A stretch of DNA of 64,000 nt from Antedon mediterranea (taxonomy: Eukaryota; Animalia; Echinodermata), in the NCBI RefSeq assembly GCF_964355755.1, contig NC_092672.1, forward strand, positions 2,976,001 through 3,040,000, in the 5' to 3' direction. Both the position numbers and the translations under genes were made by a program. The notes beneath the pieces are model-generated. The model ran no database searches. It worked only from the letters and a program-made list of their open reading frames with translations, and was not told the DNA's origin. Below are positions 14,833-52,539 of the stretch, piece by piece (position 1 is the stretch's first letter; each line of letters opens with the position of its first letter).

Positions 14833-25152
<10,320 letters not shown>

Positions 25153-30200: not shown

Positions 30201-32827
30201 AGTATGTTTAATCAATACGTTTTCTATCTAATTATTGCTATAGTTATTTTGATAAGTTGATAATTTGATAAGTAAACTTACAATATACAGTAAGTAATAA
30301 GCGTATTTCTCAACATCCTTGGTCTACGAAATACGTCAATCATTGTATAGGTTCGTTCTTTTGCCACGTCTGATTTTGCTGAGCCAGTGACGTCGTTTCT
30401 CTTCTGGAGAGACATGCTTTCATTGGATTCTTCCCTCTCTAAATTGGTTTTTATGTTAAAATCTTTAGGAATTGCATCAATATATACGTTGCTTTCGTCT
30501 AATTTGTTGAATTTGGCAATTTTACGAAAGACGTTGTTGGCATCGGTCAGACGTCCTTTTGATATCATCCATCTTGGAGATTCGTAAACAAACCTGATAC
30601 AAAAGATTTAATTTGCTGGTCATCATGGATATTGCAATTTACATAATATTAATATTATGTGAATGATGGAACAATAACGGTTTCTGTGACAATTAATCAA
30701 CTGCAGTGAATCCAACTGCGGCACTTTTACACATAATGCAGGTGGAAATAACCACATATGTTTATGACCAAAAAATGTTCGTTAAAGCAGTTCACTCTGA
30801 GAAGTGATTTTATAACAAGCGTCAGAAAGAGCTAAATACATGGCCGGATCCATACATACCACCAAAGAAATACTGCTGTTAGACAAGGTGCAGAAATAGC
30901 AATCTGCATGTGTCTCCAATCACGCAGAAGGTAAGCATACAGGGGCAGAAAGGCAATAGCCACACCCCATGACACGTTAGAAAGACAACCTGCAGCAGTT
31001 CGTTTTTCAGGCGGAAACATTTCCATTAAAAGCACGAATGAGGGGACATTTATACACTGAAAAGATACGATAAACTATATTATCTTCATATCAAATTTTG
31101 CTATATAATGTAAGTTTGTTTTTTCATGGGCCCGTCCCACCTTTACTGTCATATAGCAGAATGTTAACATATACTTTAATAACATTATATTGGTATGGTT
31201 TGTATTAAAATATAAATATAAATATAAGTGACAGTAACTATTTTATTAGATTTTTTTTTTCTTGCTTTTACGACAGCCGTCAACTAAATCGTTGGCAGCC
31301 GTTAACGATTTAGGGAAAACAGAAACATAAAATTAAATCTAAATTAATCTTCCACGTTAAATTTAATCGACAAAATGATTTTTAATGGTTGTGATTGTTT
31401 TATAACTTTTTTTCCGATCTTGCGGCGATACAATTATATTACTGTATTTATAAGCAAGCGGTGATTACAAAACAAGGCAAGAAAAGTCCCAGATAATAAT
31501 AATACCGGTACTGACACATTATGACTGCAGGGCCATATCAGAGAGATTCTGGAAATTCATCAACGGAGAAGTGAGAACAATGGCGATTTGATTATTGAAA
31601 CTTTCATATAATTTGTCCTAGAAATATAACAATTTAGGTATTTGTATAGCGCCAGTATCAATTAAACCGAAATAAAAATCAAAGGCGCTTGTATTAGATG
31701 TTAAAAGGTTGCGTTTTAAGTTCTTTAAAAAAAATAGCAATAGATGTTCATTTAGTAATATGTCGAGGGAGCGAATTCCAAAGAGAAGCAGCAGAGAACA
31801 TAAAAGACCTTTGTCTAGGAACAACCAGTAGGTTTTGATCAGCCGAACGAAGAAAAGCAAGAGGGGTGTAGGGAGGAAGAAGATAAAGAAGATAAACGCA
31901 TTAAAACATACTTGTTCTATAATGGCTGTAAAGAACCACACAGCAGCGAATGAGTAGAAAGACGTAGTAAAAGTCAATGCTATTCCAGTTATACCAATCA
32001 AAAAAGTAGCTGCTAGAAAAACATTTCGTCTTCCGAAATAATCTGATGTTAGCCCTGATACTATGGATCCAACGAGAACACCACAGAAGTACACCGACAC
32101 AACGGTGTTTGCCATTAATTTCTTGTCACATACCAAATCAAACTAAATTGAAAATGTTCATGAAGTTTCAGTGAGCATACATTTTTTTCTCTCTCTTTTG
32201 CAGCATGAACCACCACTTTTAATCTTTTTTTCATAATTAAATACATTAAAAATAATCAGTAACATTTGTCTTTTAGCTACACAACTTCTTATATGTTATT
32301 TCTTTAATCATATTGTTTTCCTCCTTGTTTCATTAATTACTTGTATTATTCTGCTAATTTATTTTTCTACGGAAGTGATTAACTTTGTTAAAACTACAAA
32401 ATGGCCTATTAAAAGTCTAATTTTATTGATCTTCATTTTTCATGTTTTTGGAACAACATTGCGTATGGCCAAAGATAGGCCTACTAACCTCATTGACAAC
32501 TGTCGATTCTCCAACAGTTAGCATGTACTCATTTCCATTCGGACAGCCTATCGTTTCATTTGTCAACGTACCATTGTCTATTTCATATATCAAACAGCTC
32601 TCGTACTCAACTATAGTATCACTGTGTTCCTTACTTATCGGAATAGCTTCTGATTTACTAAAACCTTCGTATGGTTTGCAGAAATGTGTAGGTGTATCCA
32701 CGATGAAGATGAAGGCAATGATATGAAGTGCAGGTACCATAGTCCCGTATACACACACCACCAACAGCAACAGTATTTGGTATCTTCCCCATGGCTTGAG
32801 ACTTCTTAAAATTTCGTCAATATCCAT
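27261..32827 (-). CDS. SLC22-family organic cation/anion transporter, 9 coding exons, 560 aa
   Basis: Exons 32827-32489, 32142-31912, 31056-30860, 30593-30282, 29906-29772, 29172-29087, 28907-28787, 28572-28500, 27449-27261; total 1683 nt in frame. Motifs WGRYQ, TVVNEFDLVC, SDYFGRR, ESPRW, EIFPTELR, LPETRNRPLPET. Confidence 0.93.
27574..28451. mobile_element. MITE family C (Harbinger-like foldback) carrying a nested insertion
   Basis: TIR agacccatttacactagggcga / tcgccctagtgtaaatgggcct, TTA TSD on both sides. Confidence 0.75.
27850..28340. mobile_element. Non-autonomous CACTA/EnSpm-like element (CACTG ends)
   Basis: 31-bp perfect TIR CACTGTAAAAATAGTGTTTAGATCTTAAACA extending imperfectly to ~70 bp; 2-bp TSD CA; many subterminal taaaca motifs. 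Confidence 0.8.
29229..29445. mobile_element. MITE family A variant (same subtype as 16310-16520, opposite orientation)
   Basis: agcgtggttccc...ctagtaggaaccaagct. Confidence 0.75.
31690..31830 (-). mobile_element. Decayed 3' end of a CR1/L2-group LINE ORF2
   Basis: Minus strand translates RSFMFSAASLWNSLPRHITK*TSIAIFFKELKT, resembling the 'RSF...LWNSLP...FK..LKT' ORF2 terminus. Confidence 0.5.
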
Positions 32828-34620
32828 CTAATATGATATATTTTAAAGATCAATCAATCAATCTTTTGTGGCGTAAACACCACTTTTATTCATATTAATA
32901 TCATCTTTCATGGCATCATCATAAAATCATCATATTATTTTCATTATTATTACATTTTTTTGTTAATTGTTAATGTTATCAATTTAATCAACTTCACCAG
33001 TAACATTTTTAAAGATCAATCAGTTACAGCAAAAACTACTATGCTTACTACAATAATAACGTACCATTTTAGTTTTAATGGTTAACACAAACATCTTGTT
33101 AAATATATTGTATAAATAATAAATCTATTGCAGTAACTGCAGTAGATTGGTCACCAGGTCACAGTACAATTCAGTACAGTTTTGTATATTATATTCGCAC
33201 TTGTAAGCAGAGGCCAAAACTAATGGTATTCTTATGAATGTAATTATAAAAAACATAATGTAACTACAACTCACCTTAGACATTTGTAATATTCAGGTGC
33301 TAAGTTTTGGTAACCTACTCTTAAGCCCCTTCACCTCGCAATGCAGCCTTTCCTTTGGTGCAAAAAGTGTCATTTGCAGGTAGCGTTATAAAAGGTCAAA
33401 TGATTACAATTTGAATAAAAGGGCTTAATAATATTTAATATTCGTATTCATCAAACGTATACAAGGTTTCCATTGGCTGCATGTAATATCAAAACAATTA
33501 TTGTCGGTATTGTTTTTGTTGTTTTTAAGAACAAATTAATATAGTAATAACGTATAATAATATTAATAACAAAGTAAAGCGGTTTGGAATATTACACTTG
33601 GGTTCAAAGCTGCCGTCAATTTAATGATAAATAAACAAAGGAGATTAATTGGAGCCGTTGAGGATAATTATTTAGATCATCCAAATACAGATTTATATTT
33701 ACTGTAGGCTTTAAAAAAATAGGAAACTTTGGACGCTGAAGCTGAGACGTGTTGATAGAATGTATGAGCCTTGTAACGTTGCCAATCTTTAGAAATAAGC
33801 TGAAGAAAAATATCAATAATGTGTGTTTATGATTTAGACTTTGTATTAATTTCTTCTTTCTGGCAAAAAGAGGTGGTGGAGATTATCTTGGCAAGAAGAG
33901 GTGGTGGAGATCATCTTGGCAAGAAGATCCTATAGTGGCACCTAGACAAAATAATTCGAAGCCTAAGATAAATAATCGAAAACGCATGTTTAGTTTATAA
34001 AAGATATTTCATATTGCTAGTTATTTTATTTCACAAATAAGTAAACTTACAATATATATTAAGCAATAAGCGTATTTCTCAACATTCTTGGTCTACGAAA
34101 TAAATCAATCATTGTATGGGTTCGCTCTTTTGTCACATCTAGTCTTGCTGAGCCAGTGACGTCATTTCTCGTCTGCTGAAGAGACAAGTTAGAATGGTTT
34201 TTATTAGCCTCTGATTCCTTGTTGCCTAAATCGGTTTCTCCATTAAACATTTTAGGTAATTCATCATCAAGACTATTGACTTCGTTTAATTTGTTGAATT
34301 TGGCAATTTTACGAAAGACGTTGTTGGCATCGGTCAGACGTCCTTTTGATATCATCCATCTTGGAGATTCGTAAACAACCCTGATACAAAAGATTAATTA
34401 ATTTTTTTAATATAGGCCTACCGTAAATCATGGATTTATATTCTAATTTGCATATCGTTTTTACTTTTTTAATTTGTATATTTTTTGTTATTTCTTTCAA
34501 ATAGGCCTAAAAACATGAATTTGTATCTTTACATACCACCAAAGAATGACTGATGTTAGACAGGGTGCAGAAATAGCAATCTGCATGTGTCTCCAATCAC
34601 GCAGAAGGTACGCATACAGA

Positions 34621-34800
34621 TAGACTTGCCCCAAGTCTGTATTTATTGTCTTTTTTTTATATTTATTTGTTTTTATCTCGACCGCGATTTTTCTCTGAAA
34701 ATATCCAAACTCAAGTAATACACGTATGAAACGCCATATGTGCAAAAATATTTATATTTTTACTAATATTAAGACAAAACTCCGTCTGGAGCCCAGACTA
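34621..34800. mobile_element. 180-bp non-autonomous DNA transposon with 9-bp TSD, inside a pseudogene exon
   Basis: TSD GCATACAGA (34612-34620, 34801-34809); ends TAGACT...AGACTA; the intact paralog shows the empty site. Confidence 0.85.
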
Positions 34801-35115
34801 GCATACAGAGGCAGAAAGGCAATAGCTACACCCCATGACACGTTAGAAAGACAACCTGCAAGCGCCCGTTTTTCAGGCGGAAACATTTCCATTAAAAGCA
34901 CGAATGATGGAACATTTACACACTGAAAATAATACAAACGGTATTAATTATGGTAGAAAACGGAGCTATAAGTTTTAGTTATAATATAATGCACTGATTC
35001 TAGAAAATAATGCCCTACAGCATTCAATGTGAAGGTTTGAAATGAAAGTCTGAAAGGATACATAGAGTTCTGCTTTAGAGTTCTTGTGGCGTCATGTTTT
35101 TTAGCTGCCAACTAA

Positions 35116-35247
35116 TTCTTAGTTCCCACTAGAGACTCAACGCAAGTTCGACCAATCACAAGCGATGGAATATTCGAACTGTAGCTTGTCATTGATCAAC
35201 TCGCTTGGTCTATGTCCTTGCGTATTCCTCCTAGTGGGAATCAAGCT
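35116..35247. mobile_element. MITE family A, diverged
   Basis: ttagttcccactag...ctagtgggaatcaagct followed by taa. Confidence 0.7.
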
Positions 35248-36099
35248 TAAATCGTGGGGTTAAGCTAACTCATCATTGGTCAGATGTTTTGCCCTACTAT
35301 GACGTAATTTGTACTTCATACTAAGTACATTTGAGTATACTTGGGAAAAAAAATCGCAAGTAATTCATCTGAACAATTACTCAACTCCCCGACGCAAAGC
35401 TACTCCACAGTAGTAGAATATAATTCATCATTCAAAAACTTATTTAATTTTGAACGTCATTTGACACCACCTATATAAAAATTAATGGCTTAATATTGTT
35501 TAACCGCTAAACTGACCTTCTAACGCTTGAGACGATGAAATTATACAAGTATAATTATATTCCTTTTTCTTAATTACGTAGGCTACAATTTACAAACCTG
35601 CAAAATCGGAAATGCTGAAATAAACATTAATGCCGATTTTTGGTCTACAGTGTTAAAACTCACCCAACCATGACCACGTTTTGCTTATCAATTATTTTCA
35701 ACTTCAACGTGAGTAGGCAAATTTTGTGTAAATTAATCAACAAATTGAAAAAAAAAACGAAGAAAGAAAAGAAAAATTATTAACAAGAAATATATTATAA
35801 ACATACCTGCTCTTCAATGGCAGTAACAAACCATACAACAGCGAATGAATAGAAAGTCAATGCTATTCCAGATACAGCAAGCAACAAATAAGATGCTAGA
35901 AAAACATTTTTTCTCCAGAAATAATCTGAGGCTATCCCCGATATTATGGATCCAACGAGAACACCACAGTACACCGACACAACGGTGTTTGCCAATAATT
36001 TCTTGTCACATACTAAATCAAGCTATAAACAAAATTGTTGATTCATTATATCAAAAACTTTTAATTTTGTCTTTAAAAATTCCCATTTTATTTTACATA

Positions 36100-36376
36100 A
36101 GAGACCAATTTACACAGACGAGCGGTGTAACGGAAAACGGAAAACCGCGTAGCTTGTCGCGCGTAAAATCTGTATCTATATCCTGAGCAGAAACCGCCGC
36201 CCGTCCGCTCCGTGTGTGTAATTTGGCCTTGATACTATTACGCAGAAACGCGTTGGTAGAACGAGAGAAGAGAGAGAAGATCAGTATTCTGTCTCAGTGT
36301 CCCCTACGGATTCGTACGTTGTGTGTAAATGGTCATAAAGAATAGCAAAGATTCTATTTGTCTGTGTATTGGCCTC
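36100..36376. mobile_element. Harbinger-like MITE(s), ggccaatttacacagacg family
   Basis: agaccaatttacacagacgagcgg...tgtgtaatttggcct plus a second right-arm fragment; related to 22140-22316. Confidence 0.6.
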
Positions 36377-36965
36377 AATAAACATTATGATGTATGGCGT
36401 GTTCTGGCACCATGGAGCGGACGTTTCAGCTCAGGATAGATACATATTCCTACGGGCTTGTCGGGCGGATCATTAATTTATGAATTTAAGTATCTCATTG
36501 TGTTTATTTGTATCTGTGTATCCCTGCGTAGCACACTTAAATAAGGAATAAAACAAATAAAGAATAAATGGAACCATCTTTCTATTATTACTATAATGGT
36601 AATTTCGAACTGACTGGAAATCGAATTCTATAGATGGAGACAAAGCAGATTAATTTTGAGAGTTCTAGGCCTAATGGCAGCAAATTAGCGAAATCTGTTT
36701 ATCTGTAGACTTACTACAAAGAATCTAACCTCATTGACCACTGTTGATTCTCCGTTGTTCAACATGTACTCATGTACATTCGGACAGCCTATCGTTTCAT
36801 TCGTCAACGTACCATTGTATATTCCATATATCAAACAGCTCTCGTATTCAACTATAATATCACTGTGTTCCTTACTTACGAAATAGCTTCTGATTTACTT
36901 AAACTCATAATAGTTTTCAGAAATGTGATGAAGATGAAAGCCACGATGTGAAGTGCATGTACCAT

Positions 36966-39258: not shown

Positions 39259-39609
39259 TAACACTGGTACACTTTTTATTAGATTAGAATCTATTTTAAG
39301 ATTGAGGGCGCTCTGTCTAAATTTTCGTATTTTATTATTGTGTCATCGATCATTTTGGAAAAACCACGAGCTCATCTCTCTCACCCTCAGGACTAGCTTT
39401 TTTGTAAGAAGTGCAGAAATCACAATTTATTAGCTTGCTTTATTACGTAGTTTTAAGTTTATCATTATGTATTTATTCAATCTGTTTCGGTTATCTTTAA
39501 TTAGAGCCAGTGCCTGACCTAGGTTGTCTTCCTCTTTAGCTTAGTTACCAGACTGTCACTCTCTGCGTACACACTACACTACCAGCCAGGAGAGCGGAGG
39601 TCAGGTAGG

Positions 39610-39929
39610 TAAAGAGACTGTTTATGTTTACTTATTAACCTAGGAGGACAATTAAGTCTCTTCGGTGTAACTACACACTCATCGTTTGTACTCACCTAAT
39701 CCTTTCTAGGCTGGTACGTGATGGGTATAGTTTGTGTCCTTCTTTGGTTGTGTCTTCGCTTCAAGAGATCGAGTTTTGCCTCTCGCACATTCAACGCCCG
39801 GGGCTGGTCGTGACGTATCTCGCCACTGGCCAGTCCCAGGGCCGGATTCGGGGGTTGAGTGCGCGTAGGCCCGGCGATTGGCTGTGACGTATAGATGACG
39901 TAACCAATAGCCAATCGCCAGGCACTACA
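39610..39929 (-). repeat. 3' LTR
   Basis: Base-for-base identical to 51600-51919 on visual comparison; reads TGTAGTG...CTCTTTA on the minus strand. Confidence 0.97.
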
Positions 39930-39950
39930 ATCCTCCTCGTTTTATTTTCT
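39930..39950 (-). other. Polypurine tract
   Basis: Minus strand AGAAAATAAACGAGGAGGAT directly abuts the TGT start of the 3' LTR. Confidence 0.75.
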
Positions 39951-40039
39951 TTGTTTCCTGCCCCCCTGACTATTCTCTGACTGGTCTTCCCAAGGGAGAC
40001 AGGCGCATTTTAGTTCACCGTCAGTGTCTGACATTGCTG

Positions 40040-40210: not shown

Positions 40211-41267
40211 CATGGTGGGTCCTCCACTCCTTCCTCTTCTTTCTTTTATTTTTTTTTTTTTTTTTATTTTTTTTTTTTTTAACATGTAACACAACGGGGG
40301 GCACAGCCCCAACAAGAACAGGATTTGAAAAACGGAACACCAGAACGTCAAGGTGGGGGAATTACCCCAACAATTTGAACATATGACAGCCAACAGGGGA
40401 CTAAAGAGTCCCGAATAAAAAATGTTGCCATAACAATCGAACAATGGGCAATACATACGAACAGTTGAAATAAAGAAACAAGAAAATCAAATCCCTTCAA
40501 GCCATGTGGCATAGGGTATACATCGGGTTGCTGCCCGGCACCGTGTTCCAGGGAACATTGGCACCTGACAGCCCCCCGGAAGAGAAAAAATCTGAGGAAC
40601 ACCGTTCTAGGGGTACAGAATTACAGATTTGAGAAAAGAAGGCACAAGCCTATGGGGATTGGCAAAAATTTAGCAAACAACAGTAAAATTTTGTTCTGGA
40701 ATTCCAGTATATAGGGCTGACTGTTTGCGTGTATACAAAATATTCTAATTAGATGAGAGAAATCGTCAAAAAGAGACCGCACTGACAATCGTAATTGAAA
40801 CAAGGGACTTACGGTCCCAGCTAAATAAGTAGAGGACATGTTGGACCTCAAATTTTGGGGTGGGAAGAGGATTTGCTCTTCGCCAACTTTTGGGCGTGCG
40901 GTGACTAAGGACAGACAATTGTCCTGGGGTACAAAAATGTTATACGCAAGTACACCAAGAAGGGGTGTACTGTATTCAAGTGATTTAGAACGGTGTGGTA
41001 TATAATAATCGTTTTGAAGAATTGAGTCCTGTTAAAGAATTGAGTTCTTTTACTCTCTTTTCATACTAACCGTAGCGCCCCTGGGCGGTGCGGCCAGTCA
41101 TGTTGATTTCATTGGTCCATTTTTTTTTTTTTTTTTCTTTTAAATGTGGTTCCCATACTAACCGTAGCGCCCCTGGGCGGTGCGGCCAGTGATGAAACTG
41201 TGTTGATTTCATTGGTCCAATTTTTTAATTTTTTTTTTTTTTTTTTTTTATATAGTCCAGTGGCACT

Positions 41268-42992
41268 TCAGGCGTCCAACTCCTCTGCGAGGGTCAGCTG
41301 CTCGATGCACACGCGGTGCATGCGGGCGGCCGCCTCTCGCAGGGCGCTGCTGGAGGATGACAAGGCTGCTGCTGCCAGTCGTTGGTTCGCAGTATACGCC
41401 TCTCTCAGCAGTCGGCGGGCTTCCTCATCTAAAGCTTCCGCTGCCCGCTGCGGTGTTGTGGAGGACTGTTGAGGGAGCTTCGGAGATCCCATACTAGCCG
41501 TAGCGCCCCTGGGCGGTGCGGCCAGTGATGAAGATTCCGGTGCCGGTTCCATTGGTCCTGGAGCTCTCGACGATGGCGGAGGGCATGAGGGCAGGCCTCC
41601 GTACTTTTCGTTGAGTTCATGAAGTCGTTTCGGGTTAGCCCTCATGGCCTCTGCCAGCAGTGGGCACAGACAGAAAGGGTGCAGCATCACCAGGGCGGTG
41701 ACCTGATTTCTGATGTCCCTTTCCATTGACGGCGCCTTCCAATTTACTGCCTGAGCTGTAAGCGTGAGTTGACGCAACCACTTGTTGCCCAGGCCGCAGG
41801 CTCCGGGCCTCAGGAAGTACTTTCTCAAAAAATCAAAAGCCTTCCTCAGAGTTGAGAGACCATCTGGAAGCAGGGGGATCAGTTCTTGAAGGTATCTCCA
41901 GGCTGTCCTCATCTTATGGTTGTCTTGATGGTGTACATACTTTGCCACAACCTCTGGAGCATGCACATTGAGGTGGTCCATTGCCGAGCCTTGCAGACCG
42001 CAAGCTGGCACTGGGCACGCATACCCCGTTCCCTTCTTTGCTGCGGGAGTGGCAGGGTGCCGCGAGAAATCTGATTGTTCTCCTGCTGACGGGTCCACGA
42101 CCTCCGCCGGAACGACGTAAGGTTTACGCCTTGATGATTTTGATCGGGGCGAAGGTTTAGTCCGCTCTGCCGCCCTGGCAGCAGGCCGACCCCTAGCGTC
42201 CCTTGATGACTTTGACCGGGCCGAAGGTTTAGTCCGCTCTGCCGCCCTGGCAGCAGGCCGACCCCTAGCGTCTCCGGACGGGTTCTTCAGCCTGAAGTCC
42301 TGACAAATAAAAGTTGTTTTGCTTGCCTCGTCTCTTAGGAAACGCGTCATGAGCTCCCCCACCGTCTCTGCCCTAGGCGGAAACGGATGGATAGAACAGA
42401 TGATGCGGTCCGGTCCGATTGTGGATACCACCTTCGATTGAAGCAGAACACCCTTCCTGGCTAGGCTTTGAATCTCACAGCGAGCATCCGACGAAAGGTC
42501 CGACCCAGGAGGCCGCGGAACGCCAGCCACCTCTATATTGGCACGAAACATCTCTGCATCCTCTGGTGATAAGGCCACCATACCATCGAACGCACCCCTG
42601 CCACTCACTCCCGAGATCCGCCGGATCCACAAGACTTGGCCCAGCGCGACTCGAGGCTGTGAAGGGGACAACATGGATGGTGATGGGGGGCGGAGAGGCG
42701 ACATCGGATCTTCACGCTCCATCTCCTTTTCTGCTTGCTGGGGGAACGACTCTGCCCCTGGGGGCAAGAGAAGCGCCGCCACAGCCGGTATGTCAGTGGG
42801 GACCGAGTCCTGCACTTCCCCATGGGGTCCGTGCCGGGGCTCGTCCTCGGTTGTACCTACCACTACCCCAGGGGGTAGTGGAGTGGTCGCCCTCTCGGAG
42901 GCCCGGGCAGGGGCCGGCAGAGAAGGGAACTCCCTCTCCACTAGCTCTGCCCAGTCCATTGGCGTCACAGCTTCTGAGTAACTCTTTTCCAT
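41268..42992 (-). CDS. Retrotransposon ORF3, unknown function (574 aa from ATG 42992; 588 aa from 43034)
   Basis: Long uninterrupted ORF after pol on the same strand. Pro-rich, 24-aa basic tandem duplication, CPVPAC-x8-HLNVH, C-terminal Ala/Arg/Glu helix. Confidence 0.8.
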   Translation of the reverse strand: MEKSYSEAVTPMDWAELVEREFPSLPAPARASERATTPLPPGVVVGTTEDEPRHGPHGEVQDSVPTDIPAVAALLLPPGAESFPQQAEKEMEREDPMSPLRPPSPSMLSPSQPRVALGQVLWIRRISGVSGRGAFDGMVALSPEDAEMFRANIEVAGVPRPPGSDLSSDARCEIQSLARKGVLLQSKVVSTIGPDRIICSIHPFPPRAETVGELMTRFLRDEASKTTFICQDFRLKNPSGDARGRPAARAAERTKPSARSKSSRDARGRPAARAAERTKPSPRSKSSRRKPYVVPAEVVDPSAGEQSDFSRHPATPAAKKGTGYACPVPACGLQGSAMDHLNVHAPEVVAKYVHHQDNHKMRTAWRYLQELIPLLPDGLSTLRKAFDFLRKYFLRPGACGLGNKWLRQLTLTAQAVNWKAPSMERDIRNQVTALVMLHPFCLCPLLAEAMRANPKRLHELNEKYGGLPSCPPPSSRAPGPMEPAPESSSLAAPPRGATASMGSPKLPQQSSTTPQRAAEALDEEARRLLREAYTANQRLAAAALSSSSSALREAAARMHRVCIEQLTLAEELDA

Positions 42993-43089
42993 ATTCGATC
43001 TGAAAGACATAATGAAAAGCACCTTTCCAATCATGGTGAATGTGAATTACAGTGTTAGTCAGCCCGGGGTGAGACGTTTGAATGCGGAT

Positions 43090-46000
43090 CTACTCGGCAC
43101 ACTTGGTACATTTAAATCGATCGATATCGATAGCTTCCGCTGGAGTAATGTTGACGCATGCTCCATGGTACCATTCACCGCACAGATCGCACTCGATCAT
43201 AAAACGCCCCTCCCATGGCTTCCTACAAGTACAGTAAATGCCGTCATCTTCGGCATCCCCGTCGGGGTCGGAATTCGTCAGATCAAGGTTGGTGATCCAA
43301 TTTGGCAAATCCCGATCCCGGCAGAGCTTCAGTTTATCGTGGTGGATTACAAATACTTTATTACGGAGGCGTACACGGAAGGCGTACGGGGCCAGCACCT
43401 CAGTGACTACCCCCGGACCCTTCCATGGCGCATTCAATTTCTTGTTTTTCCCCTTTATTTTGGTCTGGTCGAACACATAGACTTTGTCCCCAACTGCGTA
43501 TGTACGCTCTAGTAGCTTAAGGTCGTATTGATACTTATTGCGCTTTTGCATTGATTTTAGATGTGTTCTTGCAATATCGTGCGCTAACTTCATATTTTCT
43601 ACTAGGCCAGTGGTGTATGAATATGGATCAGTAATTGTTGTGCCCCCTGAAGAGCCGAACATGAGGTCGGGTGGTGTCGATACCTCCCTGCCCAGCATCA
43701 TCAGGTTTGGTGTAGATTGGGTACTTCGGCATACCGTGGCCCTAATTGCACTCGTTATCTGGGGCAGATATTTATCCCAGTCCTTTTGTTGTTTTCCCAC
43801 AAAACACCGGACCGCATTCATCACAGTCAGATTGTAACGTTCTACCTGACCGTTAGCTGAAGGACGGTACGGCGTGGTGTGGGTCTTATTAATGAGGAGA
43901 ATCTTGCAGAGCTCCCCGAAGAGATCGCTCTCAAAATTCGGACCCTGGTCCGAGTGCAATTGCAGCGGCATACCAAATCTGGAGAAGAATTCCCTTACCA
44001 GTACCTCGGCAGTCAATTGTGCAGTCTGCCGGGGTACCGGGTAGGCCTCTACCCACTTTGTAAATTGATCCACTACCATCAATACATACAGATTCCCACT
44101 ACTGGACTGAGGAAATGGTCCTGCAAAGTCTATGTGAACCCTTTCCATTGGGGCTCCCGAGTGGTAATTAATCTGTTCCGAGCGGCCTTTCTTATTCCCC
44201 CTCTTGTGGCTGTTACATATGGGACAGCCTATGACATATCTTTCGATATCCCCGGCCATCCCAAACCAGTAGTATCGTTGTTTAAGACGGAGCTTAGTCC
44301 GTTTGATACCTTGGTGGGCGGCCGATGGGAGATCATGATAAGCTTGCATTGTTGTTTTAATCAATGACTTCGGAAGAACAAGAAGGTCCTCCTCCCCCTG
44401 TTTATCTTGAATGAATAACACCCCGTCTCGCAAGCACATCCTTTCCTTACTCAACCAATAATGTTTTGTTGCCGGGCTAGTAGCGAAAAGCTCATTTGCC
44501 GAAGGCAGCGCGTCACCCTTAAACCAGAGTAACACGGGCCCCAGCTCCTGGTCTTTCCCCTGAGCCTCTTGGATTTCCTGGGTAGAGAAACCCCAATGAG
44601 ATTGCTCCGCCCTTTCCGTGGTTAGTTGATGAACATGTTGGGAGGGCAGGAAAGGCTGCGAGATAGGTTGATTTTGATGTGCGTGCACACCCGTCAGCGG
44701 AATGACGTCATCAACCTGGTCGATGAACGCCCCCCATTGCTGGTGCGCACGTACACAGTACTTACACCCCTTGCAAGGTAAATCAGATAATTTCACCCCA
44801 TGTTTGTAATGATTAGCCATTTCAGGTGCCCGTGACAATGCATCGGCATTGACATGTTTTTTACCAGGGCGGTGTTCTACTATCATTACATACTGGCTAA
44901 GTTCTTCTATCCAGCGGGCCAGTTGCCCTTGGGGTTCCTTGAACCTCAGAAGCCAAGTCAGGCTACTGTGGTCGGTGCGAACCTTAAATGGTTTACCCAG
45001 CAAGTAGTGTCTAAATTGACGTGTGAATTTCACAATCGCCAACAGTTCTTTACGGGTGGTACAGTAGCGTTGCTGCTCTGATGTTAATGCTAAACTAGCA
45101 TAAGCAATCACACGCTCCTGACCCCCTTGTAATTGGGACAATTCACCTCCGATTGCCTGATCTGATGCATCGGTATCAAGGACGAACATGTCATCAGGAT
45201 TCGGAAGTGACAAAACTGGTGGTTGTGTCAATTTAGATTTAATTGAGTGAAATGCATCTATTTGAGGTTTGTCCCATCGGAACTCCCCCTTCTTTGCAAC
45301 TGCATAAAGAGGTCTTGTTAATTCGGCAAAGTGGGGAATGAATGCCCTATGGTAATTTGCTAGGCCAAGGAAGCGTTGAGCCTCCTTGTAGTTCTTAAGA
45401 TCAGGCCACCCACACACTGCCGCGATATCGGTATCGGACATCTCGAGAGTGTTGCGGGAGACCATACGGCCCAGAAATTCCACTTTCCTCTGGAAAAATA
45501 GACATTTCTTTGGTTTTAGTTTCAGATTATATTGTCGGAACCGACCTAGGGCCTCCCTTAAGTTATTGCTGTGGTCTTCAAATGATTTGCCCAGGATAAC
45601 CACGTCGTCGAGGAAAGCCAGAGCAGTCTGCCAATTTAGACCACGCAAAACCATATTGATGACCCTAGAGAAGGTTGCCGGACTATTACACAGGCCAAAG
45701 GGCATTTTTACAAACTCGAACAGGCCATATTTGGTGACGAAAGCGGTCTTTTTGCGATCGTCGGCATTGAGGTTTATTTGCCAATAACCAGAAATGGCGT
45801 CCAATTTAGAGAACCATTGATTACCCGACAATGTGTCGAGGCAATCCTCTAAAATTGGTAATGGATATACATCCTTTACCGTGATGTTATTTAAAGCCCT
45901 ATAGTCTATGCAAAATCTGACGTTTCCATCCCTTTTCCGGACTAGGACTGGGGCGGAGGACCATTCAGAATTGGACGGCTGAATGATACCCCCCTCCAGC

Positions 46001-47016
46001 ATTTTATCCAGTTCTTTGCGTTCTTCATCGGCAAAGTGTAACGGGGTACGGCGAAGTCGGTGTCTCACTGGTGCTGCATCAGACGTATCTACCCGGTGAT
46101 CAATATTAGGGACCTCCCCAATATCGAATTGATCCCTGGCAAACACATCTGCGAACTCAGTAAGCATCTCCTTCACCACCCCTGCCTGATCTTCCGATAA
46201 ATTGGTAATAGAATTTTCATAAGTTGTACGCATGTGATGTGGCAATGCGTGTGTGGCCGGAGAGGTTTCCCCCGGATGGGTGAAAACTTCCCCAGCTACA
46301 CAGGATTCTATTTCAGATGCAAACCCAATTTCTAAACCTGCTTTGACAGTTACGTATTTGTTGGTTGTATTGACCATGCAGATCACAGGCGATTCACCTG
46401 CGGTGTGCACAGTTCTAGGAATTGTTAGGTTATTGTGGCCATGAGGTTCTACAATGTAGTCATGCAATTTGGTATCTAACTGACAGGAAACATAGGCTAT
46501 TGATGTAGGTGGTATCACACGCCGCTTGCATGTGATTATTCTGCAGCTAGAGGGCGTTGAGGGCGCCATACCATTTTGTATTAATGGGACAGCAACCCCA
46601 CCGACCTTTAACAGCATTTCGCCTATGTTGACATCTGCGTTTGTGCCCCTCATGAAATCCAAACCTAGTAGCATTTCGTCTTCAATCGGTGCAACATAGA
46701 CATAAGTGGGGTAGATGTTTGGCCCAATTTTGAGTTGCACCGGACCTATTTTTCGCCCTTCCATCGAACTACCCTTACCCGCCATGAATAATTTAATAGT
46801 ACCCACGGTGGGCGGAGTAGGGGTAATTGAATGGTATAAGCTATCAGATATAATAGATACAGTCGCTCCACAGTCGACAACAGCGTCAACTTTAACGGAT
46901 GCGACCGTAACTTTAGTGTAGAGTAATGAATTAGATTTCACTCGCTGTACAATAAGTGATTCAGTTGGGTCGCACTCTGGAGTGAACAATTTGGAGTCGA
47001 CCCCTAGTCGTTTAAA
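43090..47016 (-). CDS. pol: Pol polyprotein: protease, RT, RNase H, integrase, C-terminal PHD finger
   Basis: VVDCGAT protease; RFCIDYRALN, MPFGL, FLDD RT; LDTDAS/ELLAI/RTDH RNase H; H-H-C-C plus HIDFAGP, SDQG, VER integrase; C4HC3 PHD. The frame is open up to the slippery site at 47016. Confidence 0.97.
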   Translation of the reverse strand, partial: FKRLGVDSKLFTPECDPTESLIVQRVKSNSLLYTKVTVASVKVDAVVDCGATVSIISDSLYHSITPTPPTVGTIKLFMAGKGSSMEGRKIGPVQLKIGPNIYPTYVYVAPIEDEMLLGLDFMRGTNADVNIGEMLLKVGGVAVPLIQNGMAPSTPSSCRIITCKRRVIPPTSIAYVSCQLDTKLHDYIVEPHGHNNLTIPRTVHTAGESPVICMVNTTNKYVTVKAGLEIGFASEIESCVAGEVFTHPGETSPATHALPHHMRTTYENSITNLSEDQAGVVKEMLTEFADVFARDQFDIGEVPNIDHRVDTSDAAPVRHRLRRTPLHFADEERKELDKMLEGGIIQPSNSEWSSAPVLVRKRDGNVRFCIDYRALNNITVKDVYPLPILEDCLDTLSGNQWFSKLDAISGYWQINLNADDRKKTAFVTKYGLFEFVKMPFGLCNSPATFSRVINMVLRGLNWQTALAFLDDVVILGKSFEDHSNNLREALGRFRQYNLKLKPKKCLFFQRKVEFLGRMVSRNTLEMSDTDIAAVCGWPDLKNYKEAQRFLGLANYHRAFIPHFAELTRPLYAVAKKGEFRWDKPQIDAFHSIKSKLTQPPVLSLPNPDDMFVLDTDASDQAIGGELSQLQGGQERVIAYASLALTSEQQRYCTTRKELLAIVKFTRQFRHYLLGKPFKVRTDHSSLTWLLRFKEPQGQLARWIEELSQYVMIVEHRPGKKHVNADALSRAPEMANHYKHGVKLSDLPCKGCKYCVRAHQQWGAFIDQVDDVIPLTGVHAHQNQPISQPFLPSQHVHQLTTERAEQSHWGFSTQEIQEAQGKDQELGPVLLWFKGDALPSANELFATSPATKHYWLSKERMCLRDGVLFIQDKQGEEDLLVLPKSLIKTTMQAYHDLPSAAHQGIKRTKLRLKQRYYWFGMAGDIERYVIGCPICNSHKRGNKKGRSEQINYHSGAPMERVHIDFAGPFPQSSSGNLYVLMVVDQFTKWVEAYPVPRQTAQLTAEVLVREFFSRFGMPLQLHSDQGPNFESDLFGELCKILLINKTHTTPYRPSANGQVERYNLTVMNAVRCFVGKQQKDWDKYLPQITSAIRATVCRSTQSTPNLMMLGREVSTPPDLMFGSSGGTTITDPYSYTTGLVENMKLAHDIARTHLKSMQKRNKYQYDLKLLERTYAVGDKVYVFDQTKIKGKNKKLNAPWKGPGVVTEVLAPYAFRVRLRNKVFVIHHDKLKLCRDRDLPNWITNLDLTNSDPDGDAEDDGIYCTCRKPWEGRFMIECDLCGEWYHGACVNITPAEAIDIDRFKCTKCAE
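46962..47016 (-). promoter_or_regulatory. -1 programmed ribosomal frameshift signal
   Basis: U UUA AAC at 47016-47010 in the gag frame, 6-nt spacer, then stem GGGUCG-ACUC...GAGU-G-CGACCC; pol is in the -1 frame. Confidence 0.88.
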
Positions 47017-49214
47017 GAGTCTTCTTCATCTACATCGAATTCATGTTCGACTAGATTTAGCCTTCTGTTTTGCTTGAAGTTTGATTTATTATTATGTGGT
47101 CTATTTGAATTATTGGGAGTCTTGGTGGGGCATTCCCTTGCGAAATGACCCTCCTCACCGCAGGAGAAACAGCCGGCCCCTCTCTCTGGAGATCTACGTC
47201 GAGCCGGGGATGGTTGCCTCTCACGCGGCCTATCAAGGCGATCTAATACCTTGTCTAATTTCGAACAAAGGGCCGAGACCTGTTCTTGCAATTCGTTTAT
47301 TCGGGTGTTGGAAGCATGAACAGATTCCCGGTCCAGAGAACGATCTCGATATCGGGCACCATGGGGCGATTGCGGACGTGCAAAACGCACCACGCGCCGT
47401 TTATCCTCCCTTTTAGTTATTTCATTAATCCGCCCAAAGTCACCCTCAGCCTGCAAGTTGCACTCCTGAACACTAGGTTCTGGGTACACCTGGCAGACAG
47501 TGGATGGCTGGGGTGGAGTTTCTGGCAGATGTGTAGTTGGTGTTGAGGCCAATTTAGGTGTTATTATTGGTTCATCGTTGACACTCTGGTGCCATTCGAT
47601 AAGTCGGATAGCTTCAGGAATTGTTTTGGGGCGCTGCAGGCTAGCAAATTTGCCGCTTGGCCTATCAACACACCCACGACAAAACTTTAAAGCTGCCATT
47701 TCTTGGATCCAATGATTGGTGGCCCCTTCACCCCCTTGCGTTCTATACGCCTTGGCTGCGGCTTTAAGCACTCTGGCTCCCCACTCACGTAGGGACTCCA
47801 GGTCTTTTTGGAAAAGTTTTTCGAATTTTGCAGCCAGAAGAGATTGGTCTTGGGCGGAGCCAAAGTATTCGTTAAAACTAACGATGAGCCTCTCGTAAGA
47901 GACTGCACTACCATGCAAGGTCAGCAACGTTTGTAAGTACGCGGCTGCCTGGCCCCTCATGCTCATGTGGAAAGCTTCCTTGCGTTCGGCCCTAGACCAT
48001 CCATTAATCTGGGAAAATCCCTCAAATCTATCATGGAATATTCCCCAGTCGTCATCCCCACCGTGGAATTCTAGATGTTTTTGCGGCCTGAAAGGCTGTT
48101 GACCCCGATGATCACCGCGGCCCCACTCGTCCCGCAAGGGTAGGCGGTCAAGCCTATTCCTCTCGGGGCGAGGAGGTCGAAGGAATCGTCCGAGATCGTG
48201 CTCATAATTTTGATGATCATTTCTCCCACCATAATCACCCATCTGATAATTATCTCGGTTGATGTTTTGTAAGGGTAGTGGTGGTTGATTATAATTCATT
48301 CCAGTGGCGGAAGGATGACGAGGACGATAGCAATCGTTGTCCAGGTACCCCCGGTTGTAATTATCACCTCCGTACCCATGGTCACCTTGAGGGTAGGAAG
48401 GTCGAGTTCCCCATGAGGGGTCTCGGTTCTTATTTTGAGCAGTAGGGCGTTGAGGTAGGCCATGTTCAACAGCGGCATCCCCCCGTCCTACGTTGGTGTT
48501 ACAATTTATTTCTTTTTCTCGATCCGAATGATCGGGACGGTAGCCGTGTTCTACAGCTGGATAGCCATAAAAACCAGCCCCAACCCGGTCATAAGGATGG
48601 GCGTCTTCGTTTCCCCCAGCTCCCGTGCGAGCACGTGTACTAGGAGACGGTGAAGTATCCACCATGTGCACTCCAGAACGATCAAGAGATCTACCCCGAC
48701 CAGCAGCAACAGGGCCGCTGGTCGCAGTGTCACCCCTTCTCATTGGAGTACGCGGAAAAACCTCATCGCCACCCATATCGCCCGCCCGGTGGTTGTTGTG
48801 GAGCGTACGGGAATCTAGGTTGCTAGGCACGCTTGCCTGGTCTGCATAGCGTTGATCGCCTCCGGCCCCCGGATGCAAGGATGGGTCGCTCGGCAAAGGT
48901 GGTACGGGGGTGCAGGCCTGCTCGTGAGCTTGATCGTGCTCTCCCGAACCGTTACCCACATCTCCATACCCCCCAGTCGGCGGTCCCATTCTCACATACC
49001 GAGAGTTAATGGCATAGTCCATGTTAAAGGACAAAAAGTCGAACGAATTATCGCCGACTGCCCGTGCTAGATCTTGTGGGTTTGTGATATTCCCATAATT
49101 ATCCCTGTAGGCCCTGATTTTCTCGGCCAAGGGTGGGGGTAAACCCTGTGGGAAATCTTTCGCCCTACGGACAAAGTTGATCTTAAAAGGTATTGGTTCG
49201 ATGGTTTTTGGCAT
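47004..49214 (-). CDS. gag: Gag, 736 aa
   Basis: Capsid-like region (DWGIFHDRFE...NGWSRAER), coiled coil, zinc knuckle CFSCGEEGHFAREC; lies upstream of pol. Confidence 0.93.
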   Translation of the reverse strand: MPKTIEPIPFKINFVRRAKDFPQGLPPPLAEKIRAYRDNYGNITNPQDLARAVGDNSFDFLSFNMDYAINSRYVRMGPPTGGYGDVGNGSGEHDQAHEQACTPVPPLPSDPSLHPGAGGDQRYADQASVPSNLDSRTLHNNHRAGDMGGDEVFPRTPMRRGDTATSGPVAAGRGRSLDRSGVHMVDTSPSPSTRARTGAGGNEDAHPYDRVGAGFYGYPAVEHGYRPDHSDREKEINCNTNVGRGDAAVEHGLPQRPTAQNKNRDPSWGTRPSYPQGDHGYGGDNYNRGYLDNDCYRPRHPSATGMNYNQPPLPLQNINRDNYQMGDYGGRNDHQNYEHDLGRFLRPPRPERNRLDRLPLRDEWGRGDHRGQQPFRPQKHLEFHGGDDDWGIFHDRFEGFSQINGWSRAERKEAFHMSMRGQAAAYLQTLLTLHGSAVSYERLIVSFNEYFGSAQDQSLLAAKFEKLFQKDLESLREWGARVLKAAAKAYRTQGGEGATNHWIQEMAALKFCRGCVDRPSGKFASLQRPKTIPEAIRLIEWHQSVNDEPIITPKLASTPTTHLPETPPQPSTVCQVYPEPSVQECNLQAEGDFGRINEITKREDKRRVVRFARPQSPHGARYRDRSLDRESVHASNTRINELQEQVSALCSKLDKVLDRLDRPRERQPSPARRRSPERGAGCFSCGEEGHFARECPTKTPNNSNRPHNNKSNFKQNRRLNLVEHEFDVDEEDSLND

Positions 49215-51587
49215 CCCTGGAAGATAAGAAAAATCCTTCCCAATTAGTTTTATTCTTCATTTATAGGCCTGGTAAGTACTCCCGTCCCCCCGTGCATCCA
49301 ACCAGCGAGCGGAGGTAGCATCGGTCTGATGCTGTTTCGATGATTATTTTTGCGTCTCACTCGTTGGGTGCCCAGAGAGAACAGGGGTAGTACCAGCCCA
49401 ATACACACCTAGCGCTAATCACAGTTCAATTAAATATAATTACAATGTAAGGGTTACCTCCCCCCATCACAAAAATTTTAGCTAATTATGTGTACATATA
49501 ATGATTTATGGGCACTCACATTATGCCACGAAAATAAAATAAAAGGACTACACAAATAGTACAGGTTAATGAAAAGAATATATGATATACAAGGCATGTG
49601 ATAAGAGATACAGATCGTTACCAGATGTTATTGTAGCCAAGTGTCAATGACATGGACAAAACAAAACATTACAGATTACACACTGTGACAGTTAAGAATC
49701 GAAATTCATACAAGACATGTTGAAAAACAATCATGATAAGAAAAAGATCATACAAGAACATGCGAAAATAAATGAGACAAGACACGGAAAAAATTTTATT
49801 TTGAAAGAAAAAGGCATACAAGACATATAAAATAATTCTAGGCAAAAACCTAAGATAATCAATAAATAAATAAATATGCCTAAAGTATCAAAAAATAATA
49901 TTCGAACCAAAAATCAATAAATATAATAATAAAATAAATATAGGTACCGGCCTAGCCTGTACACTAAAAAATATTTCAATTTTAAAAAATCTATGCTAAA
50001 TAAAGACATTCTAAAATAATAACAATAAACAGGAATAATTAAGCCTATGCATAATTACCCAAAAAATAAAAATAATTCATGAAAATAATAGGTAGGAAAT
50101 TCCACTAGAATAACCACCTAATAAATAAAACATCGTCTAACTAAAACAATAAAAATTTACTAATAATTTTACGTCGAAAATAGTTCAATAAAAATAAAAT
50201 AAATCAATCGGAAAATAACTTAATTCCAAGCAATCAATATACACGAATGAATAAATAAATAAATAATAATCCTAATGTCATTTCCATCCAAGTGGGAGAG
50301 ACAAAATAACTATAATCTAACTACCCCGCGATAGCACAGGCCAGAAAATTCCAGCCCGTCTATCGTCAGGCCATAAATCAATCCAGACAATACACAGACC
50401 GGGAGACGAGCTCTCAGTTCTGCATAAAACTAAAATCTAAAAATAGTAAGGAGTATCCCTATATTATTCTACCAATCAGAATACAGTACTCACCTAACGT
50501 CATCATCGAAAGTCGTAAACAACTGTTGACCTCGTTGATGCAAGCAGCTATCCGCGAGGGTAGCAAGCGAATGCGTGCTCGCGATTGGCTAGCGATGAAT
50601 CACACGTGAGAAGACTGATAGGCAGAAAGTTGTTGTTTGACAAGGCGAACCGCTCAGGAATGGCGGCATTCTCAAAGCAACGGCAGTGTAGATAACTACT
50701 GTTTAACCCCGTTGTTCGTGAACACAAGTCGCCAAACCAGAGTCGGATTACCCTAACAAGCAACACCCTCCAATAACCTCGTTCTGTTGGTCGTAGGTTA
50801 TGGTAGTGTAATTTAAGGATTAAAAATAATGATAATAAAAATCGTGGATTTGAATAAGCTAATAAATAATCAAAATACGCGAGAGATGCCAACCACAAAA
50901 AATGGCGTCACTCACTAAAAAATTGTTTCGAAATTAAATTTAATATTTTTCCTACAAATTATAAATTTGCTAATTATTATGTTTTGTACATTTTTCCAAT
51001 AATATTCTGAATCACGGGCCAGACATATTCATTGTTCTGGAATCACGGGCCCAGTGCGTTAAACATACAATAAAAAACGCTGTTCCATGTTCACGTGCAT
51101 GGTATGTACGTAGCTTCGGCTAGGTCACGGGCCCAGGGCAGGGCCCAGCCACATCGCTACACACACTAATATCTTTTTCGGATCATTAGGAAATAAAAAA
51201 TGTACCTATCCGAAGAATCAGAGTACAAATGGGTCCCCCATAAATATACTGTCTGACAATTCGGATTACGGCACAAATCCAAGACGGAGAAATAATAATA
51301 TAATTTACTATAAACAACTCCCGACGGCTCGACCCCATCGATCGGACGAAACCTGCAGGCACGACAGCAGATTTCGGCCGCGAGACGGAGACGAGTCGTT
51401 GACGAGGTGGGAGATGGGTAGTGGGACGTGCTGCCCAGCAAACACAGAGGTCGTTCCTCCAGCATTGCCTCTGGGCAACACCACAGGGCGAAACGAGATG
51501 TGCGAACTAGAACAACACTCCTACCTTCCCAAACAGCTACACGCGGTTGACAGTGTCCCCCGCCGAGGCAAAAGGAACACCAGTTTA

Positions 51588-51598
51588 CCTCGTCGCCA
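51588..51598 (-). other. Primer binding site, probably tRNA-Ser(GCT)
   Basis: TGGCGACGAGG 1-2 nt inside the 5' LTR; complementary to the ...CCUCGUCGCCA 3' end I recall for metazoan tRNA-Ser(GCU). Confidence 0.75.
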
Positions 51599-51599
51599 T

Positions 51600-51919
51600 T
51601 AAAGAGACTGTTTATGTTTACTTATTAACCTAGGAGGACAATTAAGTCTCTTCGGTGTAACTACACACTCATCGTTTGTACTCACCTAATCCTTTCTAGG
51701 CTGGTACGTGATGGGTATAGTTTGTGTCCTTCTTTGGTTGTGTCTTCGCTTCAAGAGATCGAGTTTTGCCTCTCGCACATTCAACGCCCGGGGCTGGTCG
51801 TGACGTATCTCGCCACTGGCCAGTCCCAGGGCCGGATTCGGGGGTTGAGTGCGCGTAGGCCCGGCGATTGGCTGTGACGTATAGATGACGTAACCAATAG
51901 CCAATCGCCAGGCACTACA
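51600..51919 (-). repeat. 5' LTR with CCAAT boxes and CRE half-sites
   Basis: Identical to the 3' LTR; three CCAAT/ATTGG and three ACGTCA motifs in its first ~120 nt. Confidence 0.97.
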
Positions 51920-52539
51920 TAGGTGTGTGGAGAGAGGTTTACTATTATCTAGGGTAAGCCTATGCCTAGGCCTAGGTCTACTGGCACTAGCACTATCAAG
52001 TTTTTTCGCCCTTATTATCTAGGCCTATAATGTGATTATCAAACGCTATTACCTGTATCCAATTAAACTTAATTAATTCATGTAATAACTAATATATTGC
52101 TGATTGTAGATACCAGCATAATCAAAATGCATACCATGGTCCATACCACTTCACTTGCACAATATAAGTACTAAAATGTGCATTTATGTATTTGAAAAGG
52201 GATGCAATTTAAGCAGTGGCTGATCTGTGAAGTACAAAATAAGTATGTAGGCCTATGTATGTAATTGTTACCTGTCTTGTCTTATTTTGTAATGCAACCA
52301 AATTATCTAAGTTACCGCTCTGTATGTTATATTTTTTATACCGAAATAGATAATTTAATTAATTAAATAACTTCAGATTGTGCTGTTTCGAAGAAAAAAG
52401 GCAATCAAATAATATATACAGACGGTAGTATGCCTCAATAAATAGTGGCCTAAATAATAGTAGCCTAGTTCTGAATCAGAAACATAAAATATGTATATTC
52501 TATTTTCTCACAGATATCTGATTTTACAATAAAGTAAAG

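Follow-up and report, generated by a model that had tools for sequence, protein, structure and literature searches.

A Ty3/gypsy element of the crinoid Antedon mediterranea with a non-envelope third gene that lacks the TatD domain of its relatives

The element and its third gene

The window analysed here is a stretch of 64,000 nt from the genome of Antedon mediterranea. A complete Ty3/gypsy LTR element of 12.3 kb lies on its minus strand, with an LTR pair, a target-site duplication (TSD), a primer-binding site (PBS) and a polypurine tract (PPT), and holds a third open reading frame, ORF3 (Table 1). Pfam matches placed gag first and then pol, with the domain order PR-RT-RH-IN. The insertion is young and complete; its LTRs are identical, and all three ORFs are open. 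The LTR terminus is TTA instead of the usual CA (window 39610, 51600), alongside a 4-bp TSD. The PBS we take to be of the tRNA-Ser type. The TTTAAAC heptamer at the end of the gag ORF also closes 7 of the 10 gag ORFs found in relatives.

Table 1. Positions in the window of the features of the element
Feature	Position	Strand	Remarks
5' LTR	51600-51919	-	320 bp, 100% identical to 39610-39929
3' LTR	39610-39929	-	320 bp, pairs with 51600-51919
Target-site duplication	39606-39609 and 51920-51923		4 bp
Splice donor in 5' LTR	51680-51688	-	consensus AG/GTGAGT; exon end 51686, intron GT from 51685; upstream of PBS
Primer-binding site	51588-51598	-	tract starting with TGG, one base past the LTR
gag ORF with zinc knuckle	47004-49256	-	first ATG 49214; predicted splice acceptor 2 nt ahead of the ATG
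TTTAAAC heptamer	47010-47016	-	predicted -1 frameshift at the gag/pol boundary
pol	43090-47025	-	protease, RT, RNase H, integrase, PHD finger (Pfam)
PHD finger	43099-43233	-	C-terminus of the integrase (Pfam)
ORF3 splice acceptor	43000-43019	-	pyrimidine tract and CAG, 7 nt ahead of ATG 42992
ORF3	41268-42992	-	574 aa, non-env, without TatD domain
First 41 codons of ORF3	42870-42992	-	protein identical to the second ORF3 type, P0003
Predicted OB-fold beta-barrel	42384-42656	-	residues 113-203; also in P0003 and P0005/P0006
Tandem 72-nt duplication (basic 24-mer)	42129-42272	-	disordered linker; 96% identical
Conserved core	41583-42041	-	residues 318-470; zinc finger 41961-42017 and helical domain; undescribed family
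C-terminal helical hairpin	41271-41429	-	common to four crinoid proteins
Export-signal-like motif	41289-41312	-	end of the hairpin
GC-rich hairpin motif, three copies	41487-41532, 41151-41196, 41062-41102	-	about 45 nt; first copy in ORF3, the others in the 3' UTR
Polypurine tract	39931-39951	-	from sequence

The PHD finger at the C-terminus of the integrase marks a large clade. PF00628 was found on most of the pol relatives P0007-P0126, among the matches listed. No description of this PHD-integrase clade or of its ORF3 was found among the papers listed in a literature search. One pol relative, P0108, carries PF01885, whose source name is RNA:NAD 2'-phosphotransferase (Tpt1/KptA family).

The three copies of the GC-rich hairpin motif showed folding z scores of -1.4 to -2.5, computed on the element's strand. 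The motif may act as a response element or may have arisen by local duplication. No credible Rfam match was obtained for it, and many relatives carry 3' repeats of other, unrelated kinds.

The ORF3 frame (41268-43046, minus strand) runs for 592 codons without a stop and immediately follows the stop of pol at 43090. The intact ORF of 574-588 aa downstream of pol that had been proposed from the letters of the sequence was thus recovered. The 574-aa form starting at ATG 42992 is likely, since the predicted intron contains both in-frame ATGs further upstream and the 574-aa form is present in the protein collection.

ORF3 had also been described as having no convincing signal peptide or transmembrane (TM) anchor, and the hydropathy scan agreed. 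The best 19-residue value was 1.68 and fell within the folded core, the maximum at the N-terminus was -0.07, and no TM-grade segment was seen outside the core. The N-terminus is acidic and Pro-rich. ORF3 contains no N-glycosylation sequons and has no match in Pfam (at E ≤ 1) or NCBIfam, its core model has no viral-fold match, and a search of the Atlas with the whole protein gave no usable match. A match to a known env would have spoken against the original prediction; the homologues of ORF3 are themselves non-env ORF3s. An env identity was dropped, as signal peptide, TM anchor, sequons, Pfam match and viral-fold match were all missing.

The core domain and the TatD-linked family

The zinc finger of the core has the spacing C-x4-C-x8-H-x3-H, and its four ligands are kept in 41, 37, 41 and 42 of 43 aligned cores. 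The C2H2-like motif noticed earlier is therefore present and conserved. It departs from the classical PF00096 spacing (C-x2-4-C-x12-H-x3-5-H) with core spacers of 8-10 residues, and PF00096 matched 1 of 37 cores (E 0.036). A beta-beta-alpha topology is predicted for the finger regardless of the short spacer. The AF2 model of the core reached a pLDDT of 86 and a pTM of 0.82. The expected helical core was predicted, and the C-terminus was also predicted helical, but as a two-helix hairpin and not as the one long coil that had been suggested.

Foldseek with the core model returned nothing at E ≤ 0.001 in PDB or BFVD, an absence that does not prove a new fold. The best VIA match had a Z of 3.8, which is noise level, and the lowest-grade rows include helix-turn-helix controllers. 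The core profile had no sequence match in PDB, and the shared core had none in Pfam. In the Atlas, the core of a relative gave a best score of 0.87 with an unnamed C2H2 cluster, which is a lead at most.

Single-protein searches with ORF3 recovered one relative by a word-based method and three by full HMMER, all of them crinoid; a four-sequence profile added none. Its closest homologues carry the species names Antedon mediterranea and Anneissia japonica. The three crinoid homologues share 25-41% identity, have open frames and come from two genera. All four zinc ligands are kept in the four TatD-less crinoid proteins. P0003, P0004 and P0006 presumably also sit in elements.

The wider ORF3 family was reached solely through pol-linked loci. 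A search by way of pol turned up 128 loci. Animal-type retroelement DNA in metagenomes and bacterial bins accounts for most of them. The named relatives of pol are from molluscs and a sea urchin, and viral contigs yielded 6 distant integrase loci and nothing more. Most loci with sufficient downstream DNA have a long ORF on the same strand right after pol. At E < 0.001, 22 of 183 such ORFs behind pol matched the profile of the four crinoid cores, and 0 of 183 reversed ones did. Compared with the family profile, the crinoid profile gave a probability of 98.4% and an E of 6e-15 over 142 columns. The window's copy alone scored 7.5 bits against the family profile, and P0004 and P0006 scored 65-69 bits. 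By sequence, the window's copy is an outlier whose link to the family runs through these two crinoid intermediates. A Trp that is invariant across the family is missing from all four crinoid cores, which group together with an SH-aLRT of 94 (core tree, 4 truncated rows left out).

Dozens of animal-type gypsy elements (L081-L122) occur in bacterial bins (Sedimenticola, Thiodiazotropha, Rubritalea, SUP05) and are likely host DNA. More distant gypsy loci (L066, L103, L109, L061, L112) have other long post-pol ORFs without core or TatD; a Pfam scan of three such ORFs gave no match.

The core follows pol in 46 of the 128 loci, and 41 of these 46 also carry TatD. TatD_DNase was matched by Pfam at the end of 30 of the 36 relatives' ORFs scanned, and in an alignment of 28 of these domains each of the six ligand columns of TatD is conserved in 27-28. 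An HxH motif characterises the TatD group with YcfH and TATDN2/3, according to the available text of PMC10085689, and the relatives' TatD carries this motif. While the ORF3s of relatives bear a domain of this group (YcfH, YjjV, TATDN2, TATDN3; PF01026, TIGR00010), the window's ORF3 has neither the domain nor a remnant: a search of the window in six frames found none (best E 2.4). TatD was also not found in P0003, P0004 and P0006. Among the five core loci without TatD, four run out close to the end of a contig, and the ORF3 of L039 has a clean end behind the core. L039:3514-4680 is a second TatD-less ORF3 on a distant tree branch, with a likely PPT and LTR after the core. The linker between core and TatD varies from 9 to 308 residues. 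Since the core stands without TatD in L039 and the linker varies so much, we consider the core a module of its own.

By these sequence criteria, ORF3 is a nuclease-less member of a family that otherwise ends in TatD. The original prediction had included neither this family nor the beta-barrel and the splice sites. In an integrase tree from a quick search (93 of the 128 loci, those with complete matches free of stops), the element was sister to the other PHD-clade rows with an SH-aLRT of 99, and elements with core and TatD also occurred outside this clade. From these positions, the simpler reading is that the crinoid branch lost TatD. That TatD was lost there, rather than never present, is supported but not proven.

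Among the open-access papers listed in a literature search, judged by title and opening lines of the abstract, none dealt with TatD-encoding retrotransposons or with the ORF3 core; Repbase, Dfam, subscription papers and supplements may contain such a description. TatD is not mentioned in the accessible portions of PMC12440569, PMC6238403 and PMC5408684. The TatD-linked ORF3 family is apparently unpublished, and the nuclease-less branch, the core domain and the swapped ORF3 types would be new additions.

Two further predicted domains belong to the crinoid branch, and neither the beta domain nor the C-terminal hairpin had a homologue among the TatD-bearing loci. An OB-like barrel was predicted in three of the four crinoid proteins and is absent from P0004. 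Its AF2 model, built from 4 sequences, had a pLDDT of about 60-80. Foldseek listed S1/OB rows at E 0.015-0.1. With VIA, the beta domain aligned to the OB (non-Tudor) part of the TDRD1 extended Tudor (Z 8.3, rmsd 3.4, 88 aligned), and K3L (Z 6.7), SSB (Z 6.2) and S1 were also among the matches. The OB match, with 10-13% identity, is at the edge of significance, and the fold matches as a whole stand at 4-13% identity, near the level of unrelated models.

In the alignment, 4 of 4 crinoid proteins have an export-signal-like pattern at an equivalent C-terminal position, although shuffled tails match in 22-76% of cases. Under the class spacings of CRM1 export signals, the pattern is class 1a in three crinoid proteins and class 2 only in the window's copy. 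The Rev export signal is of class 2 (PMC4596688, in part).

The basic 24-mer that the original prediction had singled out is indeed duplicated, as two 72-nt units, but the duplication is specific to the copy and not a conserved feature. It is absent from the ORF3 homologues, and a contig of run X1 has the 72-nt unit only once, as do loose ends in X6 and X7. A functional role for the duplication was dropped because it is not conserved.

Expression and variation of ORF3

A joint between 51686 and 42999 with GT..AG ends was found in one contig of run X1, with a short side of 28 letters, below the threshold of 31. The joint was not present in runs X2, X5 and X6. Run X1 has no record of being RNA, and its cover of gag and pol is patchy (23 of 30 bins with any depth). 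Contig depths were not used as evidence. The leader is common to both ORF3 types, so the joint cannot be assigned to the window's copy. An acceptor-like site precedes the first ATG in 15 of 36 relatives' ORF3s, compared with 10% at random places. ORF3 is probably expressed through splicing of the 5' LTR to ORF3; the joint supports this and is not proof. As the donor precedes the PBS, any spliced RNA would be without the PBS, and we infer that only unspliced RNA can serve as the genome.

The gag gene has a strong acceptor 2 nt ahead of its ATG (49214-49236, minus strand), and the leader of 2.47 kb contains 40 ATGs. A second donor-like site at 50493 (50488-50496, minus strand) shares 12 identical bases with the LTR donor. 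Gag-pol may come from a spliced message of its own, without the primer site. The gag acceptor is not general and was found in 1 of 10 relatives.

The changes among copies of ORF3 comprised 20 synonymous and 20 non-synonymous ones, on 442 and 1280 sites. The 40 changes scored were 38 from the best 40 of 241 rows and 2 others. The neutral expectation is about 1:2.9, so synonymous changes were over-represented about threefold. The resulting ratio of about 0.35 is rough, because it comes from the best-supported rows, each scored singly. In pol, 20 of 21 changes were synonymous and 1 was non-synonymous, and the ratio of ORF3 is far higher. As judged from these counts, selection on ORF3 is purifying but relaxed.

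Neutral evolution or disruption of ORF3 in related copies had been named as evidence against a functional gene. Neutrality was not borne out at this ratio, but disrupted copies do exist. A 1-nt deletion at 42571 occurs in contigs of runs X1 and X3, that of X1 being of the window's ORF3 type, and a copy in run X7 has a stop codon within ORF3. In a contig of run X6, a joint (40738-43096) connects the pol end to the 3' UTR and leaves out the whole of ORF3, so that copies without ORF3 exist. The view of a non-env accessory gene kept by selection nevertheless gained from the absence of env features, the open homologues, the 20:20 changes and the likely spliced message.

P0003, the second ORF3 type, matches ORF3 exactly over the 41 N-terminal residues, with an identity of 38% over the whole protein. 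In X1 and X3, loose ends at 42873 continue into the P0003 type. This indicates two ORF3 types behind one leader, as after a cassette exchange.

Possible functions of ORF3

To our knowledge, few non-env third genes of LTR retrotransposons have an assigned function. Complex genomes with accessory genes are usually viewed as a retroviral trait. The bdelloid elements Juno and Vesta encode non-env ORF3s with a DEDDy 3'-5' exonuclease and a GDSL esterase (PMC5408684, in part). They resemble the present case as Ty3/gypsy elements with a non-envelope post-pol ORF, theirs being typically expressed from spliced messages, and their exonuclease parallels the TatD of the present family in the same slot (both from the available text of PMC5408684). 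In contrast, the nuclease here is TatD and not DEDDy, it is linked to an undescribed zinc-finger/helical core, and the crinoid branch has no enzyme at all. Selection on the window's ORF3 is purifying, whereas the Juno/Vesta study, in its available part, found no departure from neutrality (PMC5408684). The errantivirus env genes (F-type and gB-type; PMC13524379, in part) occupy the same slot and have an LTR-to-ORF splice logic like the one predicted for ORF3, but ORF3 lacks their signal peptide, fusion peptide, TM anchor and fold match.

CERV of the C. elegans element Cer1 is a zinc-finger protein made from a spliced mRNA and needed for the export of genomic RNA (PMC10309623, available text). 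Like ORF3, it is an element-encoded multi-domain protein with a putative zinc finger; a candidate export signal, weak in ORF3, and a spliced mRNA, likely in ORF3, would be further likenesses, as would genome RNA that keeps usable splice sites. Their domains differ: CERV combines a C4 loop with G-like and M domains, and ORF3 has predicted OB-like, C2H2/helical and hairpin domains. Export has been demonstrated for CERV (PMC10309623, same portion); for ORF3 it is argued by analogy.

The predicted OB fold, the zinc finger and the basic linker make it plausible that ORF3 is nuclear and binds nucleic acid. We tentatively favour, at somewhat less than an even chance, a non-catalytic adaptor similar to Rev and CERV, which would bind the unspliced RNA of the element and aid its exit from the nucleus. 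HIV Rev and HTLV Rex are export adaptors to which ORF3 may be likened. Default splicing would yield the ORF3 message, and the basic linker would take the protein into the nucleus. There, the OB fold, zinc finger and linker may bind unspliced element RNA, perhaps at the thrice-repeated hairpin. The C-terminal hairpin would connect the RNA-bound protein to CRM1, as in Rev and Cer1 CERV, and the RNA bearing the primer site would thereby leave the nucleus, as CERV achieves for Cer1. All of these steps past splicing are inferred. The export reading is supported by the CERV precedent, the splice joint, the OB prediction and the export-like C-terminal pattern. Against it are the weakness of that pattern, a joint from one contig, the low score of the window's copy against the family profile, the loss of the invariant Trp, broken copies, a ratio far above that of pol, an OB match at the edge of significance and the lack of this domain in P0004. 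The TatD-bearing majority also argues that the ancestral job was nucleolytic and not export.

The same domains could serve against silencing or otherwise interfere with the host, with ORF3 binding element RNA or chromatin, or acting as a decoy for a protein of the piRNA pathway or of translation control. We consider this somewhat unlikely. The beta domain is matched best by the OB portion of extended Tudor domains (TDRD1, Krimper, Papi; Z 8.3, 7.6, 6.7, 6.2), and the eIF2-alpha mimic K3L also matches it (Z 6.7). The shared 41 N-terminal residues on ORF3 types only 38% alike, the PHD finger on the integrase, and changes much faster in ORF3 than in pol, as an arms race would predict, point the same way. 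However, the OB fold is common, the identity of 4-13% lies near the level of unrelated models, SSB and S1 score alike, and the Tudor barrel itself is absent. OB folds of the SSB type also bind ssDNA, which would suit a helper on the DNA side. Its core would target cDNA, RNA:DNA hybrids or integration intermediates, as it would on behalf of the fused TatD of relatives, and here either recruit a host nuclease or shield the substrate. The company of an HxH-group TatD in 41 of 46 core loci favours such a helper. TatD enzymes are 3' exonucleases or AP endonucleases, which also counts for it. TATDN2 degrades the RNA of R-loops (PMC10711561, in part), a further point in its favour. It is still quite unlikely: intact Gag, RT, RNase H and integrase should be enough, a spliced message of its own would fit a regulator better than a particle component, and the Trp invariant in TatD-linked cores is lost here.

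Frameshifts, stops and outright absence of ORF3 among copies, together with the ratio of about 0.35 and the lost family-invariant residues, would all be expected if ORF3 were a decaying relic, dispensable after TatD loss and drifting. This is improbable, as four TatD-less proteins of 25-41% identity from two crinoid genera keep their frames, zinc ligands and a shared new hairpin, and the window's copy has identical LTRs, three open ORFs and a roughly threefold excess of synonymous changes. A DNA-binding LTR transactivator similar to Tas or Tax would make use of the zinc finger, the basic linker and the acidic, Pro-rich N-terminus, and helix-turn-helix controllers do appear among the weakest fold rows of the core (Z 3.8 or less). 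But these Z values are noise level, there is one zinc finger only, and the family context is fusion to a nuclease, so that this role is decidedly improbable. We give almost no credence to a divergent envelope or fusogen. The position after pol and the env-like splice pattern would suit one, but ORF3 has none of the env features listed above, and the available text of a survey reports no Ty3/gypsy elements with env from Echinodermata (PMC13524379).

We also speculate on a broader picture, which is unlikely as a whole. The clade would be a widespread, unpublished group of marine-invertebrate gypsy elements whose regulatory third protein swaps effectors (an active TatD in most, nothing in some, OB plus export-signal hairpin in crinoids) on a new zinc-finger/helical fold. 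The crinoid form would have become Rev-like independently, binding the repeated RNA hairpin of its element, and cassettes would be exchanged in an arms race with the host.

The family offers a defined, foldable domain without a match in Pfam, PDB or BFVD, and a natural comparison with and without a nuclease, in a host phylum reported to be without env-carrying gypsy elements (PMC13524379, in part). Two questions become testable: how the unspliced genome RNA of an element with a donor ahead of its primer site escapes nuclear retention, and of what use a TatD nuclease is to a retrotransposon.

Elsewhere in the window, 15316-18574 and 31618-32142 (minus strand) presumably hold host exons, resembling a matrix metalloproteinase (catalytic, hemopexin) and an SLC22-type transporter. 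The window also contains a duplicated block at about 30268-32637 and 34037-36878.
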